A stretch of 64,000 bases of DNA, taken from assembly GCA_033809755.1 (NCBI GenBank), contig JAPXLB010000002.1, positions 64,486 through 128,485 on the forward strand. Reading direction: 5' to 3'. Below, piece after piece: positions 13,294 to 43,982 of this stretch; within the stretch, counting starts at the first letter, position 1, and every line of letters begins with the position of its first letter. The DNA is from Lentimicrobiaceae bacterium (GTDB lineage Bacteria; Bacteroidota; Bacteroidia; Bacteroidales; UBA4417). The translations under genes and the position numbers were made by a program. The notes beneath the pieces are model-generated. The model was not told the DNA's origin, searched no databases, and worked only from the letters and a program-made list of their open reading frames with translations.

Positions 13294-14427
13294 ATGGCAT
13301 TATTTGACAAAATTAAACAAAAAGCATTCGCTGAATTTATTGACATCATCGAATGGACTGACGAGACGAGCGACACCATAATCTGGCGTTTTCCACGTTA
13401 TAATGCGGAAATAAAAAATGGAGCTCAACTCACCGTACGCGAAACTCAAGTAGCCGTATTGGTAAACGAAGGACAGTTTGCCGACGTGTATCAACCGGGA
13501 CGTTATGAACTAACTACTGCAAACATGCCCATTCTTACTACATTAAGAGGATGGAAATACGGATTTAATTCTCCTTTCAAGGTAGATGTTTATTTCGTAA
13601 ACACTAAACAGTTTTTGAATCAACGTTGGGGAACAGCTAATCCGATAATGATGCGCGACCCTGAGTTCGGACCAATTCGTATGCGTGCATTTGGTTCGTA
13701 CAACTTCAAGGTACAACCCGACCCAATACCGTTTATCCGCAATGTAGCAGGAACTAGCGGTGAATTTACCACCGAAGGTATTAGCGAACAACTTCGCAAT
13801 TTTGTTATTACCAAATTTACCGACTATTTGGCAGAATCTAAAATTGCTGCATTAGATTTAGCTGCTAATCTCAATGAATTTTCCAATGACCTCACGATAG
13901 CTCTAAAAGACGATTTCGCTGAATATGGTATAGAACTTACTCGCTTTTTGGTAGAAAATATTTCGTTGCCCGAAGCTGTTGAAGAAGCTCTTGATAAACG
14001 CACAAGCATGGGTGTTATTGGCAATATGACAACTTACACTCAAATGCAGTTTGCCGATTCGCTTAAAGATGCTGCAAACAATCCAGCTGGAGGTGGAAAT
14101 CTTGCAGGCGACGCTATGGGAGCTGGTATAGGACTTGCTATGGCAGGACAAATGGCACAACAAATGGTAAATCCGCAAGGTGGACAGCAACAACAAGTTG
14201 GAGCTACACCTCCACCGCCACCAATACCGACGCAAGTTATGTATCACGTTGCTATCAATGGAGTGCAACAAGGACCTTTCAACATGCAACAGTTAAGTCA
14301 AATGGTTCAACAAGGACAAATAACTGCCGATACATTGGTATGGACACAAGGAATGGCTAACTGGTCAGCTGCAAGTTCGGTAGCCGAATTATCACAATTA
14401 TTCAATGCGCCTCCACCATTACCATAA
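13294..14427 (+). CDS. SPFH/band-7 family protein (YdjI/COG4260-like) with C-terminal GYF_2-like domain flanked by proline tracts
   Basis: The N-terminus (MALFDKIK...IEWTD...IIWRFP...I.NGAQLTVRETQVAV) is typical of the COG4260 SPFH subgroup. It is followed by a Gly/Gln-rich linker, PPPPPIP, a GYF_2-like unit (YHVAINGVQQGPFNMQQLSQMVQQGQITADTLVWTQGMANWSAASSV) and a terminal APPPLP. Confidence 0.75.
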   Translation: MALFDKIKQKAFAEFIDIIEWTDETSDTIIWRFPRYNAEIKNGAQLTVRETQVAVLVNEGQFADVYQPGRYELTTANMPILTTLRGWKYGFNSPFKVDVYFVNTKQFLNQRWGTANPIMMRDPEFGPIRMRAFGSYNFKVQPDPIPFIRNVAGTSGEFTTEGISEQLRNFVITKFTDYLAESKIAALDLAANLNEFSNDLTIALKDDFAEYGIELTRFLVENISLPEAVEEALDKRTSMGVIGNMTTYTQMQFADSLKDAANNPAGGGNLAGDAMGAGIGLAMAGQMAQQMVNPQGGQQQQVGATPPPPPIPTQVMYHVAINGVQQGPFNMQQLSQMVQQGQITADTLVWTQGMANWSAASSVAELSQLFNAPPPLP

Positions 14428-14497: not shown

Positions 14498-14869
14498 ATG
14501 AAACAAATTTTTGAAATTTTTAAAAACGTTGTAACAAAAAATTATGCAAACTTCAAAGGCAGAGCCGATAGAAGAGAATTCTGGTCATTCGTGCTAGTAA
14601 TGATTATTATTAATGTTATATTTAGCATATTAACAAACATATCTGGAGGAGTAAAAGCTCTTTATTGGATATTCCTAATCCTTCAAATAATAGTTTCGTT
14701 AGCTTTACTATTACCATCATTAGCTGTAGGTGTTCGTCGTATGCACGATATTGGTAAAGGTGGCGGATGGATTTTTATCAACTTGTTGCCTATTATAGGC
14801 TCACTTTGGTTCTTAATCCTAACTATAAAACCAAGCGAAGAAGGAGAAAACAGATTTGATAATAAGTAA
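14498..14869 (+). CDS. DUF805 family inner-membrane protein
   Basis: 123 aa, with GRADRREFWSF..., three TM segments and the VGVRRMHDIGKGGGW motif typical of DUF805 (YhaH/YhaI-like). Confidence 0.75.
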   Translation: MKQIFEIFKNVVTKNYANFKGRADRREFWSFVLVMIIINVIFSILTNISGGVKALYWIFLILQIIVSLALLLPSLAVGVRRMHDIGKGGGWIFINLLPIIGSLWFLILTIKPSEEGENRFDNK

Positions 14870-14878
14870 AAATTATTT

Positions 14879-14908
14879 GATAGAGACGTGGAAAAACACG
14901 TCTCTATC
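14879..14908 (+). terminator. perfect 12-bp stem-loop between DUF805 and zinc-ribbon genes (terminator/attenuator or RNA processing site)
   Basis: GATAGAGACGTG-GAAAAA-CACGTCTCTATC. No clear T-run follows. Confidence 0.45.
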
Positions 14909-14927
14909 AATTTTATAAAATCAAAAT

Positions 14928-16013
14928 ATGGATATCAATACACAACCTATAACCGATATTTTGCAAACCAAGTGTAAATCATGTGGTGGTTATATGCAAT
15001 ATTCTCCTGCCGACGAAGACTTAAAATGTCTTTACTGCGGATACAAAGGCGGATTAGATAAAACTCCTGTACAAATTAAAGAAAATGATTTTGGATACTG
15101 GAAAAATCGTGCCGACGAAGAAAATAACGAAGAGGTAATAGAAATTCCGGAAATAAAATGCCGTCAGTGTGGTGCAACAACTACATTGCCCGAAAACACA
15201 TCGGCTGCAAAATGTGCTTTTTGTGGCACTCCGCTGATTATGAATGAAGCATCGGTGAAACGCTTCTGGCAGCCCGAATATCTCTTGCCTTTCAAGGTGA
15301 CTGAAAAAGCAAGCAGAGAAAACTTTAAAAAATGGTTGGGTAAGAAGTGGTTTCTGCCAACACAGCTTAAAAAGTATGGTACAACAACCGATAGCTTTAA
15401 AGGAGTGTATCTGCCATTTTGGACTTACGATGCTGATACACACACCGATTACACAGGTCAGCGAGGTAAACATAGAACCGAAGTATCACGCAATAGTAAA
15501 GGCGAAGAAGTACGCCGTACCGTTACCGACTGGTACTATACTAGCGGTAGTGTTAATGTTTCATTCGACGACATTGTAGTACCCGCATCAAAATCGCTTC
15601 CCGATAGTATTACGAAAAAACTTACCAACTGGGACATGATGAACTGCGTTGGATATAAAAAAGAGTTTTTGGCAGGATTTCTTACCGAAATATACCAAAG
15701 AGATTTTCGTGAAGCAATAGATGATGCTAAAGATAAAATGGAAATTGTAATTGAAGATTCTATTAAAGTTGATATCGGTGGCGACGATCAAAGAATTGAT
15801 TCAAAACGCATACAGTACAATAACATAAAATTTAAACACCTGCTGCTCCCTGTTTGGATTAGCGCATTTAAATTTAACAATAAGGTATACCAGTTTGTTG
15901 TAAACGCACGTACCGGAAAAGTAATTGGGCAATATCCTAAAGACAAGACTAAGATTGCAATGCTAGTGATAACTATTATAGCTATTATTGTAGCCTTAGC
16001 TATGATTTTTTAA
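14928..16013 (+). CDS. double zinc-ribbon protein with C-terminal TM anchor (YdjG-like architecture)
   Basis: Two CxxC...CxxC units (CKSCGG..CLYCGY; CRQCGA..CAFCGT), a conserved ~230-aa body (LLPVWISAF...VNARTGKVIGQYP) and a terminal TM (IAMLVITIIAIIVALAMIF). Confidence 0.55.
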   Translation: MDINTQPITDILQTKCKSCGGYMQYSPADEDLKCLYCGYKGGLDKTPVQIKENDFGYWKNRADEENNEEVIEIPEIKCRQCGATTTLPENTSAAKCAFCGTPLIMNEASVKRFWQPEYLLPFKVTEKASRENFKKWLGKKWFLPTQLKKYGTTTDSFKGVYLPFWTYDADTHTDYTGQRGKHRTEVSRNSKGEEVRRTVTDWYYTSGSVNVSFDDIVVPASKSLPDSITKKLTNWDMMNCVGYKKEFLAGFLTEIYQRDFREAIDDAKDKMEIVIEDSIKVDIGGDDQRIDSKRIQYNNIKFKHLLLPVWISAFKFNNKVYQFVVNARTGKVIGQYPKDKTKIAMLVITIIAIIVALAMIF

Positions 16014-16108
16014 AATAAATAATTAATTATGAGAGCAAGGAAAAATAAAAATACAATACTGATTTACAAATTCTTGCTCTCAATTTTTAACTTTTAACTT
16101 TTTATTAT

Positions 16109-16693
16109 ATGGGTAAAAAAGTAATTATATGGTTCTCAATTTTTATACTTCTGTTGATTTTGGTTCCATTTGTATGGGGAACATACAACCGTTTGGTAAA
16201 AAGAGAAGAAGCCGTTAAAATGGCATGGGCTCAAGTAGAAAATCAATATCAAAGACGTGCCGATTTGATTAAAAATTTAGTAGAAACCGTGAAAGGATAC
16301 GCTACACACGAACAAGAAACACTAACACAAGTAATTGAAGCTCGCGCTAAGGCAACTCAAGTTAATATTGATGCCGACAACCTAGATGCTGAGAGTTTGC
16401 AGCAATTTAGCAATGTGCAAGGCGAGCTATCGCAAGCTCTTTCAAGGTTGTTGGCTGTTGTTGAAAACTATCCCGACCTAAAAGCTGCCGACAACTTCAT
16501 TCTGCTACAAGGACAACTTGAAGGCACCGAAAATCGTATTGCTTTTGTGCGTAGAGAATTTAACGAGACAGTTAATAAATACAATACATACCGACGTCGA
16601 TTCCCGAAAAACATAGTTGCCTTGGTGTTCGGTTTTGCTAAGAAAGATTATTTCGAAGCATATGATAACACTACGCCAGATGTTCAATTCTAA
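16109..16693 (+). CDS. LemA family protein
   Basis: An N-terminal TM followed by YNRLV...AWAQVENQYQRRADLIKNLVETVKGYA.HE..TL, the hallmark LemA sequence. Confidence 0.9.
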   Translation: MGKKVIIWFSIFILLLILVPFVWGTYNRLVKREEAVKMAWAQVENQYQRRADLIKNLVETVKGYATHEQETLTQVIEARAKATQVNIDADNLDAESLQQFSNVQGELSQALSRLLAVVENYPDLKAADNFILLQGQLEGTENRIAFVRREFNETVNKYNTYRRRFPKNIVALVFGFAKKDYFEAYDNTTPDVQF

Positions 16694-16733
16694 ATATGAT
16701 TAAAATTTAATATAAAATAAAACGAAAACAAAA

Positions 16734-17810
16734 ATGAAGATAATTAAAAAACTTAACCTAGTTCTTTTACTCTTACTTTCCGTCAGCATACAAGCTCAAA
16801 TGCGCTACACGGTAAGAGATGTTCCTAATGTACAATTAGAAGATTATACACGCTACGTAAGCGACCCTGAAAATGTTTTGGATATTGGAGATATTATTCT
16901 TTTAGACGAACGTCTGGCAGAATTTCGCGATTCATTAGATATTGAAGCTGCTATAGTTGTAATACCTGCAATAGACGTAGAGAAATACGGCTCAGCAAAA
17001 GATTTCGCTACCGAACTTTTCAACACTTGGGGTATAGGTAAAAAAGAAACTAACAATGGCTTGCTCATCTTACTTCTTACAGCAGATGGCGAACGCGAAA
17101 TTGTTTTTGAAACCGGACTAGGTACCGAACAGGTTCTTACCGACGGTTTATGTAAGCTCATTCAAACTAAAAAAATGGTACCGTATCTTAAAACAAGTGA
17201 TTACGGGGAAGGACTAATAGTTGGGCTAGAAGAGATTGAAAAAGTATTAAATGGCTCTTCCGAGTTCCTGAAAAGTGATTCTTCATCGAGCGGAATTGGC
17301 AAATATGTATTGATTTGGTTGATAGTTGGTTTCATTGTAATTGGTATTGTAGAGTCGGCAAGGAAAAAACGTGTAGTGGAAAGTGAAGATCCTTTTGTTG
17401 CCGCAGCTAATTATAAATCGCTCTCAGGTATAGGTTGTCTTATTGCAACCCTCTTTTTCGGTTCATATATAATTTATATGATTTATAAAGCCATAGCAAA
17501 AAAAGATGATATGCCACCTCTAAATTGCCAAAACTGCGGAGCTAAAGGCAAGGTTGTACTTAAAAACAAACCGCAAGTTGTACAAAAAGCCCTGCCAGAT
17601 CAAGACGGAATGAAACAGTATCACTACATTTGTAAAGCGTGTAATCATGGACACAAAGTACTTGTGCCTTATAAGTACGTAGCACCGCAAACGAGGTCAA
17701 GTGGAGGCGGAGGCTACAGCTCATATAGCGGCAGTAGTAGCTCAAGCAGCAGAGGTGGCTCATGGGGTGGTGGAAGAAGCGGAGGAGGAGGCGCTAGTAC
17801 AAAATTCTAG
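16734..17810 (+). CDS. TPM-domain (YgcG-like) membrane protein with inserted C4 zinc ribbon and Ser/Gly tail
   Basis: Signal peptide, then a TPM domain (VSDPENVL...AIVVIPAI...TWGIGKKETNNGLLILLL...REIVFETGLG), two TMs, CQNCG...CKACNH, and the tail ...GGSWGGGRSGGGGASTKF. Confidence 0.8.
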   Translation: MKIIKKLNLVLLLLLSVSIQAQMRYTVRDVPNVQLEDYTRYVSDPENVLDIGDIILLDERLAEFRDSLDIEAAIVVIPAIDVEKYGSAKDFATELFNTWGIGKKETNNGLLILLLTADGEREIVFETGLGTEQVLTDGLCKLIQTKKMVPYLKTSDYGEGLIVGLEEIEKVLNGSSEFLKSDSSSSGIGKYVLIWLIVGFIVIGIVESARKKRVVESEDPFVAAANYKSLSGIGCLIATLFFGSYIIYMIYKAIAKKDDMPPLNCQNCGAKGKVVLKNKPQVVQKALPDQDGMKQYHYICKACNHGHKVLVPYKYVAPQTRSSGGGGYSSYSGSSSSSSRGGSWGGGRSGGGGASTKF

Positions 17811-17848
17811 AAATATTGAATTTTAAACTTCACTAACGTAAAAAAGAA

Positions 17849-18631
17849 ATGAAAAAGATAATATTAATAATAGTAGCTTTGTTGTTGTGCACGGTTGGCT
17901 GCTCGCAGAAGAAGTCTGTTGTCGAACTGCTTGAAGGCACTTGGCAACATGTAGATGATGAAACTAACTATCTTGTCTTTGAAGATGGAATGCGTAAAGA
18001 AATTGTAGATGGAATGAGTGATTGGGATGTTGAACCATACACACTTTCCGACTTTTGTACTAACGATATGAACAAAGACATGGAGTTACCACACGAAAAA
18101 GACAAATACATTTCTTGCAACGAATCGGATTTTTGTTGGTACATAGTTCAACTCGACGAAGAAAATCTAATTCTTAGCCTTATGGGACGTGGTAACACCC
18201 TTGAATACAAAAGGGTAAAAAACGGTGATTCCCAAGCAGTTTCTATCTCCGAATGCGAAGATTTTGAAACATTTCTCAACAAATACAACAGTGATTTTGA
18301 GTTTCAAAAAAGCAGAACTATTTTTCCGTTTGTGTCTGAAACAATTGAATATGAAGAAGTACTAAACGAAGAAGGTGAATATGTATATGATTTTCAAGAA
18401 GTAATAATTACGAATACTAAGTCGGAAAGCGAGTGGCAAAAGATAGATTTCTATTGGGACCCATCAATTGCTGAACGTAAAACAGATGCATACACTCAAG
18501 AAATTGAAGTTCTAGGAGACACAGCTTTCATCCATATAAAAGGAATTGAAAATGGAATAGGCATCCAGGCAGTATTTGTATGCAAGAATAATAATTGGTA
18601 TCTACAAAAAACAGTCGACAGATCGATGTAG
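17849..18631 (+). CDS. hypothetical lipoprotein
   Basis: Lipobox LLCTVGCSQ. The C-terminal half (FETFLNKYNSDFEFQKSRTIFPF) is reminiscent of DUF4348/NTF2-like domains, on weak by-eye similarity. Confidence 0.5.
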   Translation: MKKIILIIVALLLCTVGCSQKKSVVELLEGTWQHVDDETNYLVFEDGMRKEIVDGMSDWDVEPYTLSDFCTNDMNKDMELPHEKDKYISCNESDFCWYIVQLDEENLILSLMGRGNTLEYKRVKNGDSQAVSISECEDFETFLNKYNSDFEFQKSRTIFPFVSETIEYEEVLNEEGEYVYDFQEVIITNTKSESEWQKIDFYWDPSIAERKTDAYTQEIEVLGDTAFIHIKGIENGIGIQAVFVCKNNNWYLQKTVDRSM

Positions 18632-36023: not shown

Positions 36024-36539
36024 ATGAATAATAAAATTTTATTTGCTGCTACGATTGCAGCTATGCTACTGGCGGGATGTGCTGGCAAGGTGCAAAAAGC
36101 CAATGACGAAATCTCTATAGGAGAGGAGTGGCTAGGACTTGTTTTCACTTGTGCCGACGATGAAAACGCCTTCTGCTTCCCCGATGAGGAAAAGATTTGC
36201 ACAGAACGGTATTACGATTATTACACCGAATATATGGAGATATTTGAATATCCCAACTTTGAGACCGATGAGGAGCAAAAAGCGGCAGAAATGGAATTTC
36301 AAAACAAATGGAAAGACATTTATCCTGCAGGAGTTGAGATGTGGTCACCATTTGGGCGTGGCAACGGAATGGAGGTAGGGCAAAAGCTGAAAAACGTTTC
36401 CATTGCTCACATCGAAGGCTTAAAATATCTGGTAACTGTGGACTACGGCGATGGGCTGGTTTTCAAAAACGAAGTAACCCTTGTGCCACATGAAGATGCG
36501 TTCCTGATAGATTATTTCAAAACCGAACTTGTTGAGTAA
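36024..36539 (+). CDS. hypothetical lipoprotein
   Basis: Lipobox LLAGCAG. This gene is noticeably more GC-rich than the window average. Confidence 0.5.
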   Translation: MNNKILFAATIAAMLLAGCAGKVQKANDEISIGEEWLGLVFTCADDENAFCFPDEEKICTERYYDYYTEYMEIFEYPNFETDEEQKAAEMEFQNKWKDIYPAGVEMWSPFGRGNGMEVGQKLKNVSIAHIEGLKYLVTVDYGDGLVFKNEVTLVPHEDAFLIDYFKTELVE

Positions 36540-36717
36540 TAAAAAGCAGAATATTTATGTTCAATTTTATCAAAACAATAATGCCTGGCTGCTTGCGCTA
36601 CCTGTTATTTCAGGCAGGAAATCCGCTTAATGAAGAAGGTATGCATAAAGCCCAAGAATCATGTTGATTGACTATGAACGCACCTATTGTTTCTCTAAAA
36701 AGCGTTAATAAGAAGAA

Positions 36718-37326
36718 ATGAAAGCAAAAACCAACAAATTATTATTATTATTATTTCTAATACTAATATTAGTAATCTGGCTGGTTATGAAGTTAACCTG
36801 GCAAAATAACGTAGTGCTAATATTCATAGTTGTATGGACACTAATGGGACTGGCATTGCTAATCCCGTGGGAAAACAGTATAAGAAAGAATATTAAAAAT
36901 TCCGAAAATCCTTTTCAAAAAGCTATCTATGCCAACTCAACAGACCCAGCTACTATAACTATGCTTTCCATCATGATTCCGTACATATTTCTGCCATATG
37001 TACTTTTTATCTACTATCCACGCCGTCGAAAAGCATACAAAAACGTTGTTTGCCAAAATTGCCAATCAAACGGTTCTATGAAGCACAAGCGTAAAGCTCA
37101 AATAATACAACAAGCCGTAATAGGACAAGATGGCGTCAAGCGTTACTCTTTTATCTGTAAAAATTGCGAACATCAACACTTTGAAGATATAACATACAAG
37201 TACGTAGCGCCTTCATCAAGCGGCAGCTCGAGCGATAGTTCTTGGAGTGGAGGTAGTAGTTCAAGTAGCGGTGGTTCCTGGGGAGGAGGAAGTAGTGGGG
37301 GAGGTGGTGCAAGCACGAAGTTTTAA
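36718..37326 (+). CDS. TPM-less paralog: multi-TM protein with C4 zinc ribbon and Ser/Gly tail
   Basis: Three hydrophobic segments, then CQNCQ...CKNCEHQHFEDITYKYVAP and the tail ...GGSWGGGSSGGGGASTKF. The C-terminal ~90 aa are homologous to the 16734 and 40727 proteins, but there is no TPM domain. Confidence 0.65.
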   Translation: MKAKTNKLLLLLFLILILVIWLVMKLTWQNNVVLIFIVVWTLMGLALLIPWENSIRKNIKNSENPFQKAIYANSTDPATITMLSIMIPYIFLPYVLFIYYPRRRKAYKNVVCQNCQSNGSMKHKRKAQIIQQAVIGQDGVKRYSFICKNCEHQHFEDITYKYVAPSSSGSSSDSSWSGGSSSSSGGSWGGGSSGGGGASTKF

Positions 37327-37341
37327 AGGAAAATATATGAA

Positions 37342-37806
37342 ATGAAAACAAAACTAATAATTATAGCTATGGCACTTTTTAGTTTATTTGGATGCAAATC
37401 AGATGCACAAGATAAACAGCTTGTTTCTGTAGAATATAATAGAGTGGCGATGCGTTCCTCACTTAATATGCGTATAACAACTTCAGAAACAAATGACAGC
37501 ATTATGATGTACTTTGATGATAGAGAAACAAACGAATCTGGTTCATTTCAAATAAGCCAAAACACTTTCGATTCGTTAGCAAACATTGTCCTTAAAATGA
37601 ATAGACCGCTCAATTTCAACCTATTTTTCGTTCGCGACCTTACCGAAACTTTTAAAGTAACTTTTATTAAAAATGATAGGACCCGTGAATATAAATATAA
37701 AAGATGGAAAATAGTAAATAAAAAAACGTTAGAGCGAGAAGAACAAGCAATTCAGCTTATGAGAGAATGTATAGACAATTATAGAAAAACACGAGAACAA
37801 GTTTGA
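37342..37806 (+). CDS. hypothetical lipoprotein (short member of a 3-member paralog family; N-domain only)
   Basis: MKTKLIIIAMALFSLFGC... aligns with the N-terminal halves of the 38902 and 44781 proteins (F.I(S/T)QN.FD.LANI...M.(R/K)P; KV.FIKN.). Confidence 0.55.
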   Translation: MKTKLIIIAMALFSLFGCKSDAQDKQLVSVEYNRVAMRSSLNMRITTSETNDSIMMYFDDRETNESGSFQISQNTFDSLANIVLKMNRPLNFNLFFVRDLTETFKVTFIKNDRTREYKYKRWKIVNKKTLEREEQAIQLMRECIDNYRKTREQV

Positions 37807-37859
37807 GCAAATGAAAGGAAATAATTAGAAAATAAAAATAACTTTTAAATAATAAAAAT

Positions 37860-38306
37860 ATGAGAACAAAATTAATGATTTTGATTGCGTCGGTAATACT
37901 ACCGTTAACGCTTCTTACGGCGTGCAATTCAGGCAAAAAAAACAATGTAGAACAATTTGAGGAAAAAGCGTTTTATTCGGGAGGATTAAAGTATGAAACC
38001 CTTGTAAAATTAAGTATCAATTCTAAAGGAGAAGTAACAGGAACTGTTACGGCAAATGAATATGGCATGGAGGGAGAGCCTATTTCATTCACCGGAACGC
38101 TTTCAAACGGAGAAATAAATGTAAAATTCAACGGCGAACCACCAATAGTTGGAACAGCCTCCGAATGGACAAATATACCATGGCGCATTGAGGAAAGAGA
38201 TGGCAAAGATGTGCTAATCATTACATTCTACGCAATGGACTACGAAACCGAAGAGTGGGGTAATTCTGAGTATGAATTTGAAGAAGTAAATGAACAAGTC
38301 AACTAA
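37860..38306 (+). CDS. hypothetical lipoprotein
   Basis: Lipobox LLTACNS. No recognisable domain. Confidence 0.5.
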   Translation: MRTKLMILIASVILPLTLLTACNSGKKNNVEQFEEKAFYSGGLKYETLVKLSINSKGEVTGTVTANEYGMEGEPISFTGTLSNGEINVKFNGEPPIVGTASEWTNIPWRIEERDGKDVLIITFYAMDYETEEWGNSEYEFEEVNEQVN

Positions 38307-38361
38307 ACTTATAAAGTAAATCTTTAAACAAAAAATAATAGCAACTAAATTAATTAATGTT

Positions 38362-38787
38362 ATGACAACAAACGAATTAGGAACACAAATGGGTAATATA
38401 GCTATAAAAGCTTTCAATTTTCTCTACGACAATTTTAGCAATTCACCCGAAATAACCGACGAATTGAAACAAAAGGTGAAAGGCGAACGTGAAAAAATCT
38501 TCACAGAATTTATTCCTTTAGTTAAACAGTGTCACACATTTGGCGAAGAAGATGTGGCTGACATTGGACAAATTATGGCTTTAACTTACATGCAAGGAAT
38601 AGATGATGCCGGTACTAAACTACAGAAAATGGCTAGTATTGTGGAAAACATCGTACATGAAGGCGGTGATGAAGCCTTTATGAGAGATTTTATGAGTCTT
38701 TCTGTTATGTTTGAGTTTTTAGAAAAACCAACCGAAGACGATGAAGAAAGGAAAGCTATGTTAAAACATGTTGGATTATTAGATTAA
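38362..38787 (+). CDS. hypothetical cytoplasmic protein (helical)
   Basis: A 141-aa ORF with no signal peptide. Codon usage is consistent with its neighbours. Confidence 0.45.
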   Translation: MTTNELGTQMGNIAIKAFNFLYDNFSNSPEITDELKQKVKGEREKIFTEFIPLVKQCHTFGEEDVADIGQIMALTYMQGIDDAGTKLQKMASIVENIVHEGGDEAFMRDFMSLSVMFEFLEKPTEDDEERKAMLKHVGLLD

Positions 38788-38901
38788 GGATTAAAAAAGC
38801 AATTGAGATGCAATTAACTGAGAATCAACATGAGGCAACTGGTGATATTGTTGAACTTATTGCTATAAAGTTATAAAAACAAACAGAAAGTTTAATATAT
38901 A

Positions 38902-39708
38902 ATGAAAACAAAACTGATTATTATGACATTATCACTTTCTTCCCTTTTCGGATGCGCAAACGCACAAAAAACGGAACTTATATCTGCCGATTACCACCGT
39001 TCTGGTATGCGTAGCGATGACCGAATTAGTATTAGAGTAAAAAAAACAACGGAAACTTATACTGTAGAATTTGAAAAAGGTCATTCCGAAGAAAACAATA
39101 GCACAAGTTTTGAAATTACGCAAAACGACTTCGATAAGTTGGCGAATATTCTTTTCGGTATGAGCAAACCTCGTAAAGAACGTCGCAATTTCATCCGCGA
39201 TTTAATGGAGCATCTTGATGTAAAATTTATTAAAAACGGCAAGGTGGTATCCTATAATTATTCTATCAATCAACCAATGGATGAGAAAACTGCAGAATTG
39301 CAAAACCAGGCGATTGATTTGATGTACCTATGGATTGACAAGTTCAAGCAACGAAGCGAAATTCGTATTTATTACAGTAAAGGCATTGCTACGCCAACCG
39401 AAATATACACTCACGCCGATCCTGCCGATTTGGTTGAAGACTTAGGTACTTTTACCGAACGCCTTGACCCAAATCGCGATAATTACTGTGGCGGAAGTAA
39501 TGATTACTCTCACCGTTGGCGTGCTTTAAAACCAGGTGTGGTTACCGTTTGGCATGAAGAGTTGATGGGAGGATACGATGCAAATAGGCTGACCGAAGAG
39601 TTTGAACCTCATTCGTGCTACATTATTGATGAAAACTTAAACGTGCGTTATTCGAAAGAAGAAACAGAAACAGCACGAGAAAAATTTAAACAACGAACTA
39701 AAAGATAA
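38902..39708 (+). CDS. lipoprotein, paralog family member with C-terminal chagasin/I42-like candidate domain
   Basis: Lipobox SLFGCAN. The C-terminal half (CGGSNDYSHRWRALKPGVVTVWHEE...CYIIDENLNVRYSKEETE) resembles the (G)GG...F.F.A...G pattern of I42 peptidase inhibitors. This is by eye only. Confidence 0.5.
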   Translation: MKTKLIIMTLSLSSLFGCANAQKTELISADYHRSGMRSDDRISIRVKKTTETYTVEFEKGHSEENNSTSFEITQNDFDKLANILFGMSKPRKERRNFIRDLMEHLDVKFIKNGKVVSYNYSINQPMDEKTAELQNQAIDLMYLWIDKFKQRSEIRIYYSKGIATPTEIYTHADPADLVEDLGTFTERLDPNRDNYCGGSNDYSHRWRALKPGVVTVWHEELMGGYDANRLTEEFEPHSCYIIDENLNVRYSKEETETAREKFKQRTKR

Positions 39709-39729
39709 AATATCTAAGGAGGACAACAT

Positions 39730-40116
39730 ATGCTTTTATTAGGAGTAAGTGAAGAAAACGGTTGGCTAGCGTCAACATTTAATCTAACGTATGCAGTCGG
39801 ATGGGATAAAATATGTAAAGCTGTAAGCATGATTTACAGTTATTACGAGAATGCAGAAATTCTAATCGATAATGAAAAAATAGATATCTCTTCAAAAGAG
39901 GATATTTTAAAACTTGAAGAAGCCGGAAATATGACAATTCGCGGAATATCGACTATAATTAAAGTCCCAATTATGATAACGTTCTTTAATCAGCTTCAGA
40001 CCGTAAATGTTGCTGTTCCATGTATGAAAGGGGAATTTGAAAAGGCTGATTATCAAAAGTTCAACATGTCGTTAGGACAATATATGGATAGTTTGGAATT
40101 GGCAATGTATCGTTAG
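39730..40116 (+). CDS. hypothetical cytoplasmic protein
   Basis: A 128-aa ORF with no signal peptide. It starts 22 nt after the preceding gene. Confidence 0.4.
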   Translation: MLLLGVSEENGWLASTFNLTYAVGWDKICKAVSMIYSYYENAEILIDNEKIDISSKEDILKLEEAGNMTIRGISTIIKVPIMITFFNQLQTVNVAVPCMKGEFEKADYQKFNMSLGQYMDSLELAMYR

Positions 40117-40131
40117 TGGGAATAAATAATT

Positions 40132-40195
40132 AAACCATTAAGAAATTAAGGTTAGTTAAGTACTTAATGATTCTTAATGTCTTAATGGTTCAAAA
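40132..40195 (+). repeat. 64-bp palindromic repeat element, copy 1
   Basis: AAACCATTAAGAAATTAAGGTTAGTTAAGTACTTAATGATTCTTAATGTCTTAATGGTTCAAAA. The termini AACCATTAAG/CTTAATGGTT are inverted repeats, and there are internal CTTAATG iterations. Confidence 0.85.
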
Positions 40196-40204
40196 TAATT
40201 AAAT

Positions 40205-40609
40205 ATGACAAAGAAAGAAGTAACAAATTTATCGTACGAAATTGTCAGTTGTGCCATAAAAGTGCATAAAGAATTAGGTCCGGGTCTATTGGAAAGTGTT
40301 TACGAAAAATGCCTGAAATACGAACTCCAGAAACAAGGATACAGTGTTCAGCAACAGATGTTAGTTCCTGTTATTTATGATACAATAGAGATGGATGTTG
40401 AATTGCGAATAGATTTATTGGTAAACGATTGCGTTGTAGTAGAACTTAAGGCAGTAGAGACAGTCTTGCCTGTACATGAGGCTCAGTTACTTACATATAT
40501 GAAATTGCTCAAAAAACCGCAAGGATTGCTGATTAATTTTCATACGGATAACATTACAAAAAGCATGAAACCATTTGTAAATGAATATTTTAAACAGTTA
40601 AATGATTAA
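40205..40609 (+). CDS. GxxExxY protein (PD-(D/E)XK nuclease-fold family)
   Basis: Contains LGPGLLESVYEKCL (the G-x-x-E-x-x-Y signature) and a D...ELK core (DLLVNDCVVVELKAV). Its 134-aa size is typical for the family. Confidence 0.8.
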   Translation: MTKKEVTNLSYEIVSCAIKVHKELGPGLLESVYEKCLKYELQKQGYSVQQQMLVPVIYDTIEMDVELRIDLLVNDCVVVELKAVETVLPVHEAQLLTYMKLLKKPQGLLINFHTDNITKSMKPFVNEYFKQLND

Positions 40610-40611
40610 AC

Positions 40612-40675
40612 AAACCATTAAGAAATTAAGGTTAGTTAAGGACTTAATGATTCTTAATGCCTTAATGGTTCAAAA
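40612..40675 (+). repeat. 64-bp palindromic repeat element, copy 2
   Basis: 62/64 identical to copy 1 and exactly 480 bp downstream of it. It begins 3 nt after the GxxExxY stop codon. Confidence 0.85.
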
Positions 40676-40726
40676 AATAGTTTTATCAGGGTAAATTCAA
40701 CCAAAAAGTAGAATATTATAGAAAAA

Positions 40727-41974
40727 ATGAAAGAAAAGAGACATACAAGTAATAGCGGAGTAATAAAAAGCGTTTTTATTCTTTTTACAATCTTTATTGC
40801 AACTGCCTTGTTGGTCAGTTTTGCTGGAAACCATGAGGATTCTAACAAAGAAATAGCTATTTCAAAGCAAGAACGCTCTACGAGTAGTAGGCTACAAAGC
40901 AGCGCTGTCCTTAAGACTAATATCAGATACCGTGTAGAAGATGTACCAAATGTGCAACTTCAAAATGCATCTCGCTATACCAGCGATCCGAATAATCTGA
41001 TTACCGAACGCTACCGTATCGCAATCGACAGTATAGCAGCCACAATACGAGATACATTCGATGTGGAAGTGGCGGTAGTTGTACTACCAAATTTCGATGA
41101 TAACAAATACGCTACATTACGCGAATTTGCCAATCAGCTATTCAACACTTGGGGCATTGGCAATAAAGAAACAGACCAAGGATTGCTCATCTTGCTCAAT
41201 TTAGAAGAGGGCAATAGAGAAATAACCTTCGAAACAGGATATGGACTTGAGGCTATACTCCCCGACGGAATTTGTAAGTTAATCCAAACAAAAATAATGC
41301 TGCCTTATTTAGTCGAAGGGGAGTACGGCGAAGCACTCGAAGCAGGACTAATTGCAGTACAAAAGCGGCTTGCCGACCCCGACAACGAGGAGTTCCTTGG
41401 CACAACCACGAGCAGCGGCGATGATGGAGATGCAATATTTGGATTCGCTATTTGGACACTGTTTGGGTTAGCCTTTTTAGGTTATGCCCACTACAAGAGA
41501 AGAAAAGACGTAAACATAGGTGATAACGTTTATCAAAAACAAATTTTTTACAGAGGAATTAAACCTGCGAACTTAATTGCATACTTTATTTTTGTCCCCT
41601 ATCTAATTATTCCTTACTTGCTTTTCATCAATATTCCTTGGCGTAGAAAATTGCGAAGAGGTATGATTTGCGAAGCATGTGAGACAATTGGTAAAATGAA
41701 ACTTGAGAAAGGTAAAGAATTTATTTCATTGGAGCCAACAACGGAAGAAAATATATATATACACACTGACCGCTACACTTTTACTTGCAAAAAGTGCGGA
41801 CATCAGCATTTTGAAGATATAAGAATTCAATATATACAACCTTATTCAGGTAGTAGTGGTTCGGGATATAGTTCATCAAGCTACGACGACAGTTCATCAT
41901 GGGATTCGTCAAGTGATGGTGGCTCGTGGGGTGGTGGTAGTAGTGGTGGCGGTGGTGCAAGTACAAGGTTTTAA
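40727..41974 (+). CDS. TPM-domain (YgcG-like) membrane protein with C4 zinc ribbon and Ser/Gly tail, second full-length paralog
   Basis: N-terminal TM, then a TPM domain (RYRVEDVPNVQL...VAVVVLPNF...TWGIGNKETDQGLLILL...REITFETGYG), two TMs, CEACE...CKKCGHQHFEDI, and the tail ...GGSWGGGSSGGGGASTRF. Confidence 0.8.
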   Translation: MKEKRHTSNSGVIKSVFILFTIFIATALLVSFAGNHEDSNKEIAISKQERSTSSRLQSSAVLKTNIRYRVEDVPNVQLQNASRYTSDPNNLITERYRIAIDSIAATIRDTFDVEVAVVVLPNFDDNKYATLREFANQLFNTWGIGNKETDQGLLILLNLEEGNREITFETGYGLEAILPDGICKLIQTKIMLPYLVEGEYGEALEAGLIAVQKRLADPDNEEFLGTTTSSGDDGDAIFGFAIWTLFGLAFLGYAHYKRRKDVNIGDNVYQKQIFYRGIKPANLIAYFIFVPYLIIPYLLFINIPWRRKLRRGMICEACETIGKMKLEKGKEFISLEPTTEENIYIHTDRYTFTCKKCGHQHFEDIRIQYIQPYSGSSGSGYSSSSYDDSSSWDSSSDGGSWGGGSSGGGGASTRF

Positions 41975-42041
41975 GGTTATTTATAAATGGTACAGATTTA
42001 AGTAAAAAATTAAAATAATAAAATAATAAAATAATAAAACA

Positions 42042-42560
42042 ATGAAAAGAATATTTATAACTATCATTATTACAATGCTTTGCCTTACGGCAATACAAGC
42101 ACAAGATGCAGCAAAAGATGTGCAAAAAATTCGCACGCAGTATTATAAACTAAAATCACAACTTGAAGGTAAAACCAACGATTTGGTTTGCCTTTATTTA
42201 GAGGACAATAAGTACGACCAAAGAGAGCCTGGTGCACGCTTTTACAACGAAAAAATCTACTTCTACTACACACCTGACGAAAGAGAATTAAAAATGGTGA
42301 TTTTTGAATCCCAACATGGGATTTTCTCAACTTATGCAGAGTACATGTTCGACGATGATTTACTTACTTTTGCCTTTGAACAACAAAACGAGGACAAAGA
42401 CTCAGAAAAACGCCTTTACCGACAAAACGACAAAAATGTTAAATATTCCGTTGGTAACATTGATAAGAACATTGCAGAAAACGAAAATGACATAGCAATG
42501 CTAAACAAAAAGTCTTTTCAGTTGCTTCGTATCTTCAACTCGTATATGCTACGCGATTAA
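42042..42560 (+). CDS. secreted hypothetical protein
   Basis: Signal peptide (MLCLTAIQAQ). Its N-terminus is related to the 34-codon remnant at 44635-44739. Confidence 0.5.
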   Translation: MKRIFITIIITMLCLTAIQAQDAAKDVQKIRTQYYKLKSQLEGKTNDLVCLYLEDNKYDQREPGARFYNEKIYFYYTPDERELKMVIFESQHGIFSTYAEYMFDDDLLTFAFEQQNEDKDSEKRLYRQNDKNVKYSVGNIDKNIAENENDIAMLNKKSFQLLRIFNSYMLRD

Positions 42561-42589
42561 AATTTAATTAAACTAAAAACATTAATAAA

Positions 42590-43246
42590 ATGAAGAAAAA
42601 AATTGTATTACTCACATTAATTACACTAGCAATGTTGGCTTGTACTAACAATAAAAAAGACAATAAAAAAGTCAAAGATGTTGAAATTATCACATTACAA
42701 CCATTACAAGAAAACGAAACACTTTGTTATGAAGATGAATTGCGCCGCATTAGCGGTAGCTGGGCTGAAAATTACGACGGATTTATTATTCGGGTTGAAG
42801 CAAAGCGTGAAGATGTAAAATCATTCACAGTTCAAGATGCTACGGCATTTGAATGCGTTGTAGCTGATGCATTGATATTGAGTAATGGTACAAGCAATGT
42901 TCGGACACTTAATGTGTACGACTTAAACTCATGTGATGAATTACTGTCAATTAAAGATAATTTTTCAGGTGAGGTAATGCCTGATGACAATCAGACGGGA
43001 TTTACATTTTATAAATATTCTGAAGATATGCCTATCGTTCAATGGAACGCCCAGACTGGCGAATGGCATGAAACAAACAAAGTGCCGTCCGAACTCTTCA
43101 ACTCAGATTTTCACAATACAATTGAAGAAATTGGCGATAGAGCCTTTAACGGAATGAGATTAGCTGCATTGCAAAAAACTTACGTCAACATAAAGAATAA
43201 AAAAATAAGCTACCTGAACGAATACAAATGGAAATATATCGAATAG
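42590..43246 (+). CDS. hypothetical lipoprotein
   Basis: Lipobox AMLACTN. Confidence 0.5.
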   Translation: MKKKIVLLTLITLAMLACTNNKKDNKKVKDVEIITLQPLQENETLCYEDELRRISGSWAENYDGFIIRVEAKREDVKSFTVQDATAFECVVADALILSNGTSNVRTLNVYDLNSCDELLSIKDNFSGEVMPDDNQTGFTFYKYSEDMPIVQWNAQTGEWHETNKVPSELFNSDFHNTIEEIGDRAFNGMRLAALQKTYVNIKNKKISYLNEYKWKYIE

Positions 43247-43322
43247 GTTAGGCTTAATATGTTAATTGACAATATACATATGTAATAACCTAAATAATAG
43301 ATAAAATTAAGACTATAAAACA

Positions 43323-43982
43323 ATGAGAACAAAAGCAATAATAATTATAATGGTGTTATCATCACTTTTCGTTACAAGTTGTAACGGACAAGATAAAACA
43401 CGACATAATTATGCAAACACAAAAATATTAACAGAAAAAGAAAAATACCCAATGACTTATCAGTTTATAACACTTACAAAAGAAGAGCAAGATAAAATTA
43501 AAAAAATTATAAGGAAAGATGGGGAAAAAAGAAAAATCAAAATCTCCGAATATGCATCACAAATTCATTGTTTCCTGTTTGTATCTTATGAAGTAAAGAG
43601 AGATTTCATTGTCCTTGACCAAGACCCGAATATATACCACTTTAGCATAATATTTGACACCAAGACCAATGAAATTCTACGCAATTCAAGAGAAACGCTT
43701 GCACATATTGCTCAAACAATAGATATATTCAATAACCAAGAAATTTCTGATGAAGATATCATACGGCTTATTTCAAAAGTTCTTTTCGGCGGAAAATTGC
43801 TTACCGAAAAGTTTAGGCTTTTCGATATCGCCGAACTCCCTGTATTGCAACGCAATGAAAAATTTATAAAATGCACTGCATATTTAAAAGTTTCAGACAG
43901 CGGCATGACTAAGCCTCGTGCTGTAAAGTACATTATTTCTATCGATAATAATTTTAATGTAGAATGTAATAAACACGAATAA
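43323..43982 (+). CDS. hypothetical lipoprotein
   Basis: Lipobox FVTSCNG. Confidence 0.5.
   Translation: MRTKAIIIIMVLSSLFVTSCNGQDKTRHNYANTKILTEKEKYPMTYQFITLTKEEQDKIKKIIRKDGEKRKIKISEYASQIHCFLFVSYEVKRDFIVLDQDPNIYHFSIIFDTKTNEILRNSRETLAHIAQTIDIFNNQEISDEDIIRLISKVLFGGKLLTEKFRLFDIAELPVLQRNEKFIKCTAYLKVSDSGMTKPRAVKYIISIDNNFNVECNKHE

Follow-up and report, generated by a model that had tools for sequence, protein, structure and literature searches.

Three genes in a 64,000-nucleotide stretch from a Lentimicrobiaceae bacterium (contig JAPXLB010000002.1, positions 64,486 to 128,485; the whole stretch is called the window here) encode membrane proteins whose C-terminal module combines a hydrophobic anchor, a Cys4 ribbon and a Gly-rich tail. 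Two of the products, copies 1 and 3, are inner-membrane TPM proteins of the YgcG type, and copy 1 is encoded next to a gene of the LemA family. The comparison of these genes with their relatives in other genomes revealed an undescribed and unmodelled, yet recurrent zinc-ribbon form of LemA-linked TPM/YgcG proteins. The ribbon marks a minority form (type II) of the LemA-TPM system, and the genome under study fits this type: its two TPM genes are both ribbon-bearing. With regard to function, the ribbon may be a cytoplasmic structural docking module of TPM proteins that distinguishes the type II variant, a reading whose chances of being right and wrong we rate about equal.

The ribbon module and its distribution

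Open reading frames (ORFs) start at positions 16734, 36718 and 40727, where an earlier note on this DNA had seen proteins with a common C-terminal module, and their alignment agrees with that description (for all coordinates see Table 1). The module shared by the three ORFs consists of the hydrophobic anchor, CxxC-(31-35 aa)-CxxC, a Ser-rich spacer and the end GGSWGGG[RS]SGGGGAST[KR]F. Invariant in all copies are C265, C268, C300, C303, H305 and H307 (copy 1 numbering) together with GGSWGGG.SGGGGAST.F. The second knuckle reads C-K-x-C-x-H-x-H and is followed by a short strand ending in Y-[VI]-x-P, the Ser-rich stretch and the tail. Between the knuckles lie 31 residues in copies 1 and 2 and 35 residues in copy 3; thus, the layout with two CxxC pairs stands as the note had given it, but not its spacing of about 32-34 aa. 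Similarly, the motif Y(K/I)Y(V/I)(A/Q)P is present in copies 1 and 2 (YKYVAP), while copy 3 fits it only loosely (IQYIQP). The tail DNA strings quoted in the note are identical to the sequence.

Copies 1 and 3 reached PF04536 bit scores of 95.3 and 97.5, respectively, compared to a Pfam gathering cut-off of 22.1. In copy 2, the Pfam scan did not detect the PF04536 TPM domain, and this protein is a relative of the TPM family by its C-terminal module only. The architecture of copies 1 and 3 is almost certainly a signal peptide or anchor, the TPM domain, a transmembrane helix, a short linker, the kinked hydrophobic segment, a basic linker, the ribbon of roughly 55 residues, the disordered spacer and the invariant tail with its final Phe. 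In copy 1, a signal peptide is followed by the presumably periplasmic TPM domain, the transmembrane helix, a second hydrophobic segment, the Cys4 ribbon, the Ser-rich spacer and the Gly-rich tail. A scan of the whole 2.29-Mb assembly confined the module and the tail to these three genes.

The four cysteines of the ribbon are invariant in 71 full-length homologs, orthologs included, at a mean column identity of 24%, and also in 36 module sequences. Judged from these alignments, the invariance is far beyond chance, and by this conservation the ribbon is real and under selection. Conservation of the two histidines that follow the second knuckle is limited to the close group and does not extend to distant homologs. 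An AlphaFold2 (AF2) model of copy 1, calculated with the 71-homolog alignment, had a mean predicted local distance difference test score (pLDDT) of 88.7. The ribbon was modelled as four beta-strands (residues 274-276, 281-284, 292-300 and 306-313; lengths of 3, 4, 9 and 8 residues) with pLDDT values of 94-97, and the same four strands appeared in the model of copy 2 at pLDDT 95-98. Residues 322-343 of copy 1, belonging to the Ser-rich spacer, were disordered (pLDDT <50). A Foldseek comparison of the copy 1 model yielded the TPM structure 2kw7 (E=6e-11, TM-score on target 0.84) and also 5anp, 7tbr, 8c7i and 3pvh. The best matches outside the TPM family were the zinc ribbons of NrdR and ZPR1, with probabilities of 0.85-0.98, which were not significant (E about 0.08-0.1). 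According to the models, the fold of the module would be that of a generic zinc ribbon whose hairpins are long. Neither Pfam nor NCBIfam has a model for the ribbon. Among the library matches the best one, between the second knuckle and the FmdB-type model TIGR02605, remained below threshold (16.2 bits, cut-off 31.3), and the known ribbon families tried (FmdB/Zn_ribbon_8, LITAF, TFIIB, DZR and rubredoxin-like) did not reach their own cut-offs either.

A profile was built from 13 ribbon modules, excluding the tail, and compared with 1.84 billion representative proteins; it matched 485 protein clusters at E<=1e-3, 25 at E<=1e-10. The 133 top matches of up to 600 aa were scanned with Pfam; 100 of them contain the TPM domain, most share the same tail, and many have two ribbons (four CxxC). 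Judging from their C-terminal sequences, two scanned matches, P0055 and P0104, are C2H2 zinc-finger arrays. The C-termini of P0034, P0036 and P0038, which are longer than 600 aa and lay outside the Pfam scan, resemble C2H2 proteins too, and all of these giant proteins with 7-20 ribbon matches were treated as unrelated.

Among species-representative genomes, orthologs about 70% identical to copy 1 were found in Bacteroidales metagenome-assembled genomes (MAGs) from digesters, labelled Petrimonas, Proteiniphilum, Fermentimonas and Dysgonomonadaceae. TPM proteins with the ribbon are also encoded by Parabacteroides goldsteinii, P. gordonii, P. distasonis, P. segnis, Porphyromonas canoris and Tannerella, and further carriers belong to Capnocytophaga, Prevotella, Desulfovibrio, Haliscomenobacter, Dawidia and Lujinxingia. 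When whole genomes were searched with profiles, the ribbon was detected in at least 20 of 201 genomes of the order and at least 14 of 301 genomes of the phylum; both figures are lower bounds, at least one true case (L130) having been missed. As far as the sequences reveal, the ribbon is a recurrent but minority form.

Two points of the earlier note have to be put in perspective. The Gly-rich tail is not a mark of these paralogs but the family-wide YgcG/TPM tail: the same type ends ribbon-less relatives and most of the profile matches, which excludes a tail specific to the paralogs. Nor is the ribbon a peculiarity of the window, as it occurs in hundreds of clusters including those of cultured Parabacteroides and Porphyromonas. 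On the other hand, it is not a common, already characterised domain of YgcG proteins, but a recurrent domain that is unmodelled in the libraries and uncharacterised. Neither a zinc ribbon in TPM proteins nor a mechanism of LemA-TPM systems was found described in the literature searched, and the statement that the family is poorly understood still holds.

Each copy is old and has its own orthologs, as a maximum-likelihood tree of the module revealed; hence, the designation as diverged paralogs was correct. Copy 1 groups with LemA-linked orthologs. The orthologs with which copy 3 groups come from Fermentimonas, Petrimonas and a Dysgonomonadaceae MAG, and its orthologs in loci L019, L020 and L030 are 63-66% identical. 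Copy 2 and two 201-aa proteins (P0002, P0003) form the sister of the copy 3 clade (support 99/98), and copy 2 derives from a copy-3-like gene in which the TPM domain was lost. In pairwise comparisons, the last 20 codons of the three genes exhibited 14, 10 and 9 synonymous and only 2-3 non-synonymous differences, and the longest exact DNA word between any two paralogs is 11-14 nt. Since the synonymous divergence is high and shared words do not exceed 14 nt, recent gene conversion between the copies was ruled out and the tails must have been kept alike by purifying selection, as the note had proposed.

The possibility that copy 2 is a decaying remnant was rejected. Compared with its ortholog in L030, non-synonymous (dN) and synonymous (dS) divergence amount to about 0.23 and 1.27, respectively, giving a dN/dS ratio of about 0.18; moreover, the length of 201-203 aa has been kept and the proteins form a clade of their own. 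Since copy 2 is maintained by purifying selection without a TPM domain, anchor, ribbon and tail are able to stand alone. Other lineages likewise encode proteins without a TPM domain, about 190-230 aa long, in which two ribbons are combined with the tail (P0056, P0063, P0072, P0093, P0099 and P0101). The stub architecture seen in copy 2 would thus appear to have arisen more than once, provided that none of these proteins is the product of a gene fragment.

Several forms of the ribbon-bearing proteins deserve mention. In an uncultured Capnocytophaga MAG (L027, 4488-12512), six tandem ribbon-bearing TPM paralogs of 333-429 aa, each with the tail or a tail-like end, are situated directly upstream of a single LemA gene. 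In a Fermentimonas MAG (L018, 5953-7043), the copy 1 ortholog is frameshifted just after the transmembrane helix, resulting in pieces of 218 aa and 182 aa; the other frame still encodes an undamaged ribbon and tail, and the frameshift may be an assembly error or reflect a pseudogene. Double-ribbon forms (P0014, P0024, L055, L063, L076, L079, L137 and others) share a conserved acidic stretch that is located between membrane and last ribbon and has DYDVW at its end. Proteins of Saprospiraceae/Haliscomenobacter (L055, L063-L066) have a first ribbon without cysteines, in which the acidic DYDVW motif is retained. DNA nearly identical to window positions 16100-17850 was present on metagenome contigs from anaerobic digesters, bioreactors and landfills obtained in several studies, which places the organism in these habitats; among metagenome sequence runs, the locus was found in DNA runs only and in no RNA run.

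LemA linkage and the two types of operon

Operons combining LemA and TPM genes are also known from E. coli, Caulobacter, Bacteroides and Thermotoga. Two types could be distinguished. Type I comprises LemA, a small leaderless TPM protein (about 145 aa) and a membrane TPM protein that carries a Gly tail but no ribbon, while in type II a ribbon-bearing membrane TPM protein is encoded beside LemA and the small TPM gene is absent. Among close relatives of the bacterium, all 11 ribbon-less loci contained the small TPM gene. It was found in none of 80 ribbon-enriched loci, which had been selected via the full-length alignment and are biased towards one tail motif. Because the 80 loci were chosen through this motif, a separate, unbiased sample was drawn, consisting of LemA genes with 3.3 kb on either side from 60 genomes, each belonging to a different family of the order. 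Of these neighbourhoods, 45 were of type I and three (L102, L130 and L137) of type II. LemA stood alone in ten neighbourhoods, one (L123) contained a ribbon-less membrane TPM gene without the small TPM gene, and one (L149) was of another kind. Ribbon and small TPM did not co-occur in any of the 60 neighbourhoods (Fisher p=2e-4, ignoring phylogeny).

LemA was detected in 86 of 101 sampled genomes of the order, and of the roughly 85 TPM ORFs with a ribbon from other genomes, about 55 adjoin a LemA gene. In the window, the statement of the note that only the first copy has a LemA partner was confirmed: the PF04011 gene upstream of copy 1 has no equivalent beside copies 2 and 3. Two further LemA genes without a TPM neighbour were identified elsewhere in the genome (C2:227877-228350, minus strand, and C3:147868-148347, plus strand). 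Altogether, three LemA genes, two of them solitary, and three ribbon-plus-tail proteins were counted. A gene for the small leaderless TPM protein is absent from this genome, whose TPM genes are copies 1 and 3 only. The module of copy 2 was searched for in relatives of the same genus and not found, because these genomes carry the ribbon-less type I operon; the ribbon-less TPM proteins of these operons are 262-291 aa long and 26-36% identical to copy 1.

Topology and possible function of the ribbon

Membrane segments were located by a hydropathy scan in combination with the helices of the AF2 models. Copy 1 starts with a signal peptide of the cleavable type, copy 3 with an N-terminal anchor. In many homologs, including those of Parabacteroides and of the type II loci L102, L130 and L137, a single transmembrane helix is followed by three to five K/R residues, with no D/E, and then by the first cysteine. 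Because of these basic residues directly before the first cysteine, the ribbon is placed in the cytoplasm according to the positive-inside rule. Psb32 (10.1101/2025.05.08.652833) and the SamH protein of B. subtilis (PMC13713150) have their TPM domain in the lumen or outside the cell. By analogy, the TPM domain of the window proteins is probably periplasmic, while ribbon and tail are probably cytoplasmic. The second hydrophobic segment of the window copies is rich in K/R on both flanks and either Pro-rich (IPYIFLPY, VPYLIIPY) or broken at a Gly residue, and both AF2 models (copies 1 and 2) split it into two short helices. This segment probably represents a re-entrant or interfacial anchor and not a second span.

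In the proposed mechanism, the ribbon would bind one structural zinc ion, which holds a rigid beta-hairpin platform directly under the membrane. Ribbon and tail might then dock cytoplasmic or peripheral partners. The candidates are LemA and, for members of the copy 1 clade, also the double-ribbon protein and the SPFH-GYF protein encoded upstream. Such docking would be analogous to that in B. subtilis, in which SamH (YdjH) anchors the SPFH protein SamI (YdjI) and PspA at the membrane. YdjG and YdjH are required there to bring the soluble YdjI and PspA to the membrane, and YdjH interacts with both of them (Scholz et al., PMC8581546). In type II systems, the fused ribbon may assume the role that the small cytoplasmic TPM protein plays in trans in type I. 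A more far-reaching version regards ribbon and tail as a self-sufficient cytoplasmic working end, in which the ribbon replaces the small TPM protein in cis, as a non-orthologous substitute. In the copy 1 clade, the anchor would nucleate a LemA-based, PspA-independent SPFH scaffold, and copy 2 and the solitary LemA genes would form further pairs. This version is rather doubtful.

A number of points weigh against the docking module as outlined. The ribbon is dispensable in some lineages and is not a strict replacement of the small TPM protein: L034 (5983-6906) and L037 (3381-4310) encode proteins of the same family which have lost the ribbon and kept the exact tail, and L037 and L123 carry neither ribbon nor small TPM. 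The Fisher value given above was computed without phylogenetic correction. Copies 2 and 3 lack a LemA neighbour. The likeness of the double-ribbon protein to SamG was judged from the published description, SamG and SamH having been compared by domain architecture only, and LemA occupies the place in the window cluster that PspA has in B. subtilis. Furthermore, AF2 modelled the copy 1 tail as an ordered strand but left that of the TPM-less copy 2 disordered. Finally, the topology is based on the positive-inside rule and on analogy; a true second span would put the ribbon into the periplasm.

A periplasmic ribbon is itself one of the alternatives to be weighed. If both hydrophobic segments spanned the membrane, ribbon and tail would be located beside the TPM domain, with the cysteines forming two disulfides or a metal site. 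The forms of Dysgonomonadaceae, Porphyromonas and Tannerella indeed have two hydrophobic segments of 19-30 residues between TPM domain and ribbon. Besides, AF2 ordered the last ten residues of copy 1 (strand 349-357, window positions 17778-17804) at a pLDDT of about 91 and left the tail of the TPM-less copy 2 unordered, which could mean that the tail packs on the TPM domain. However, the tail is nearly invariant and its placement by AF2 can therefore not stem from covariation. In many single-helix homologs, the chain goes straight to K/R residues and the ribbon, and homologous ribbons should share one compartment. The basic flanks of the second segment and its break at Pro or Gly in both models also argue against a second span, and for copy 2 a topology with the N-terminus inside, two transmembrane helices and a re-entrant segment satisfies the positive-inside rule, which a topology with three transmembrane helices does not. 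Taken together, a periplasmic position of the ribbon is quite unlikely. It is also conceivable that the ribbon drives self-association of the TPM proteins into dimers or clusters, to which the tail adds weak multivalent contacts, and that a specific partner does not exist. YdjH/SamH of B. subtilis interacts with itself and is predicted to be a dimer (PMC8581546, PMC13713150), and the double-ribbon forms, the TPM-less proteins composed of ribbon and tail and the six tandem paralogs of Capnocytophaga would suit such a role. Since this explanation accounts neither for the absence of the small TPM gene from ribbon-type operons nor for the near-invariant tail of ribbon-less relatives, it appears improbable.

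Two further alternatives have been considered. The ribbon might act as a thiol redox or zinc-release switch comparable to the sites of Hsp33, RsrA or ChrR type, in which oxidative or metal stress would eject the zinc and unfold the ribbon, changing the state of the tail or the way the complex assembles. The invariance of the four cysteines, the conservation of the two histidines in the close group and the envelope- and stress-type neighbours SPFH and LemA are in line with a switch, as is the induction of a TPM gene and lemA alongside stress genes in a Flavobacterium columnare sppA mutant (PMC13236525). By contrast, Cys4 ribbons are usually structural, the histidines vary in distant homologs, and the cluster contains no gene for a thioredoxin, an anti-sigma factor or another redox partner. 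Most of the carriers found live as strict anaerobes in guts and digesters. A redox switch is thus unlikely, and a structural zinc site in a docking module would be simpler than the metal- or redox-dependent function considered in the earlier note. Binding of nucleic acids in the manner of NrdR or TFIIB, by which DNA or RNA would be tethered to the membrane or the protein would be a membrane-bound regulator, might be suspected as the NrdR and ZPR1 ribbons are the nearest solved folds. Nevertheless, these Foldseek matches were not significant, the proteins have neither a helix-turn-helix nor another nucleic-acid-binding domain, the Ser/Gly tail behind the ribbon is uncharged, and all neighbouring genes encode membrane or envelope proteins, making this function very improbable.

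Returning to the cytoplasmic docking module, the presence of a ribbon as such is unsurprising, and the tail was already known as the ordinary tail of the YgcG family. What is new is that ribbon and small TPM protein exclude each other. This exclusion and the cluster similar to SamGHI make a poorly understood system more testable. A fused ribbon in systems devoid of the cytoplasmic TPM partner points to a cytoplasmic interaction surface and suggests which subunits are interchangeable. If the ribbon and tail really are the working end, the comparison of type I and type II would tell which parts of the system contact each other. Direct testing is possible, as the variant is present in cultured, genetically tractable Parabacteroides of the gut. 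Apart from this, Pfam and NCBIfam both lack a model for a domain of about 55 residues that recurs across hundreds of protein clusters.

Gene neighbourhood and relation to known systems

Table 1. Positions of the three paralogs, their parts and the copy 1 gene cluster in the window
Feature	Position (nt)	Strand	Remarks
SPFH (Band_7_1) protein with C-terminal GYF_2	13294..14427	+	first gene of the cluster; PF13421 E=3.2e-92, PF14237 E=9.1e-22
DUF805 membrane protein	14498..14869	+	PF05656 E=6.9e-31; nearby in several orthologous loci
Double-zinc-ribbon protein	14928..16013	+	361 aa; two N-terminal zinc ribbons, central domain, C-terminal transmembrane helix
LemA family gene	16109..16693	+	PF04011 E=1.8e-58; 40 nt upstream of copy 1
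Copy 1	16734..17810	+	358 aa, LemA-linked membrane TPM protein; ORF, Pfam, AF2, Foldseek
Copy 1 TPM domain	16857..17243	+	residues 42-170; PF04536 E=3.5e-27
Copy 1 transmembrane helix	17283..17366	+	residues 184-211, then basic RKKR; hydropathy scan, AF2 helix 177-216
Copy 1 second hydrophobic segment	17418..17495	+	residues 229-254; kink at G241, K/R on both sides; AF2 helices 233-240 and 242-255
Copy 1 Cys4 zinc ribbon	17526..17687	+	residues 265-318; CQNC, 31 aa, CKAC-N-H-G-H, ending YKYVAP
Copy 1 Ser/Gly-rich disordered spacer and tail	17688..17807	+	spacer residues 319-340; family-wide tail GGSWGGGRSGGGGASTKF residues 341-358
Copy 2	36718..37326	+	202 aa; two transmembrane helices, Pro-kinked hydrophobic segment, ribbon, tail; TPM domain absent
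Copy 2 ribbon	37051-37212	+	residues 112-165
Copy 2 tail	37270-37323	+	
Copy 3	40727..41974	+	415 aa; N-terminal anchor, TPM domain, transmembrane helix, Pro-kinked hydrophobic segment, ribbon, tail
Copy 3 TPM domain	40982-41362	+	residues 86-212
Copy 3 ribbon	41669-41842	+	residues 315-372; carries a 4-aa insertion
Copy 3 tail	41918-41971	+	

Copy 1 is the last gene of a conserved cluster in the order SPFH-GYF, DUF805, double-zinc-ribbon protein, LemA and TPM protein. The genes for the double-ribbon protein, for which 4397 homologs were found, LemA and the TPM protein occur together in 16 related loci (L004, L005, L007-L018 and L037). The SPFH gene lies upstream in nine loci of the copy 1 clade; it is clipped by the locus edge in L014 and L015 and situated about 4 kb from LemA in L026. 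Upstream SPFH copies in L005, L007, L008, L010, L018, L037 and other loci are 81-93% identical. In L037, the TPM protein that has lost its ribbon is still encoded within the SPFH/double-ribbon/LemA cluster. Since SPFH, DUF805 and the double-ribbon protein were not detected within 3.3 kb in any of the 60 unbiased LemA neighbourhoods, the five-gene cluster is specific to the copy 1 clade. Between the DUF805 and double-zinc-ribbon genes (14877-14910), a perfect stem of 14 bp with a 6-nt loop and T-runs on both strands was noticed, which resembles a bidirectional terminator and may split the cluster into two transcription units.

Copies 2 and 3 are located within an array of small orphan lipoprotein genes (36024-43982). 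Homologs of the lipoprotein genes at 37342, 37860, 38902, 42042 and 42590 also flank copy 3 orthologs elsewhere, in varying order (L008, L019, L020 and L030).

The common YgcG/TPM proteins (COG1512, PF04536) likewise consist of a signal peptide, a periplasmic TPM domain, a transmembrane helix and a Gly-rich tail ending with an aromatic residue, and are encoded adjacent to LemA. The same family features were found in the window: a signal peptide or anchor at the N-terminus, a transmembrane helix after the TPM domain and a Gly-rich tail ending with F or W. What separates the window proteins from their common counterparts is the Cys4 ribbon and the Ser-rich spacer between anchor and tail and, in the forms of Dysgonomonadaceae, Porphyromonas and Tannerella, the additional kinked hydrophobic segment. 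In comparison to the common operon, the small leaderless TPM gene is missing, and one of the paralogs in the window has no TPM domain.

Resemblances to three other families are more limited. The FmdB-type ribbon (PF09723 Zn_ribbon_8, TIGR02605 CxxC_CxxC_SSSS) is also a small CxxC...CxxC ribbon followed by a Ser/Gly-rich tail, and its knuckle Y-x-F-x-C-x-x-C-G-H-x-F-E resembles the second knuckle of the window proteins. PF09723 matched 10 of 133 homologs at E<1e-4. The best homolog in the FmdB comparison, P0024, reached 28.5 bits compared to a cut-off of 34.4. However, the knuckles are about 17 residues apart in FmdB and 31-35 residues apart in the window proteins, and FmdB is small and soluble, whereas the window proteins are membrane-anchored TPM fusions. 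LITAF/SIMPLE-like proteins (PF10601) similarly combine zinc knuckles with a hydrophobic segment embedded in the membrane without crossing it. The sole PF10601 match was weak (homolog P0009, E=0.007, 17 bits compared to 23.8), and the hydrophobic segment of LITAF lies between the knuckles, whereas that of the window proteins precedes both. Psb32/TLP18.3, an assembly factor of photosystem II, resembles the window proteins in its C-terminal transmembrane anchor and in the position of its TPM domain on the far side of the membrane. It gave a weak NCBIfam match (E=7.5e-10) and the Foldseek matches 8c7i and 3pvh but possesses neither the Gly-rich tail nor the ribbon. A Gly-rich extension has been reported for non-photosynthetic Psb32 homologs (preprint 10.1101/2025.05.08.652833).

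The copy 1 cluster resembles pspA-ydjGHI (samGHI) of B. subtilis, and the work on SamGHI and PspA provides the sole experimental handle on systems of the LemA-TPM type. Both clusters encode a membrane TPM protein with a low-complexity tail and an SPFH protein of the Band_7_1 type, and the double-zinc-ribbon protein of the window, with its transmembrane helix, has the architecture described for SamG. B. subtilis YdjG is composed of two zinc ribbons, a YpeB-like domain and a transmembrane helix (Ravi et al., PMC11237479), and the zinc finger of SamG is cytoplasmic while the TPM domain of SamH is extracellular (Baur et al., PMC13713150). No source was found that names the double-ribbon protein of the window YdjG, and Pfam scans of the five cluster genes revealed no PspA match. 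Contrary to B. subtilis, the SPFH protein of the window ends with GYF_2 and not with a zinc finger, the cluster includes a DUF805 gene, and the TPM protein itself is ribbon-bearing.

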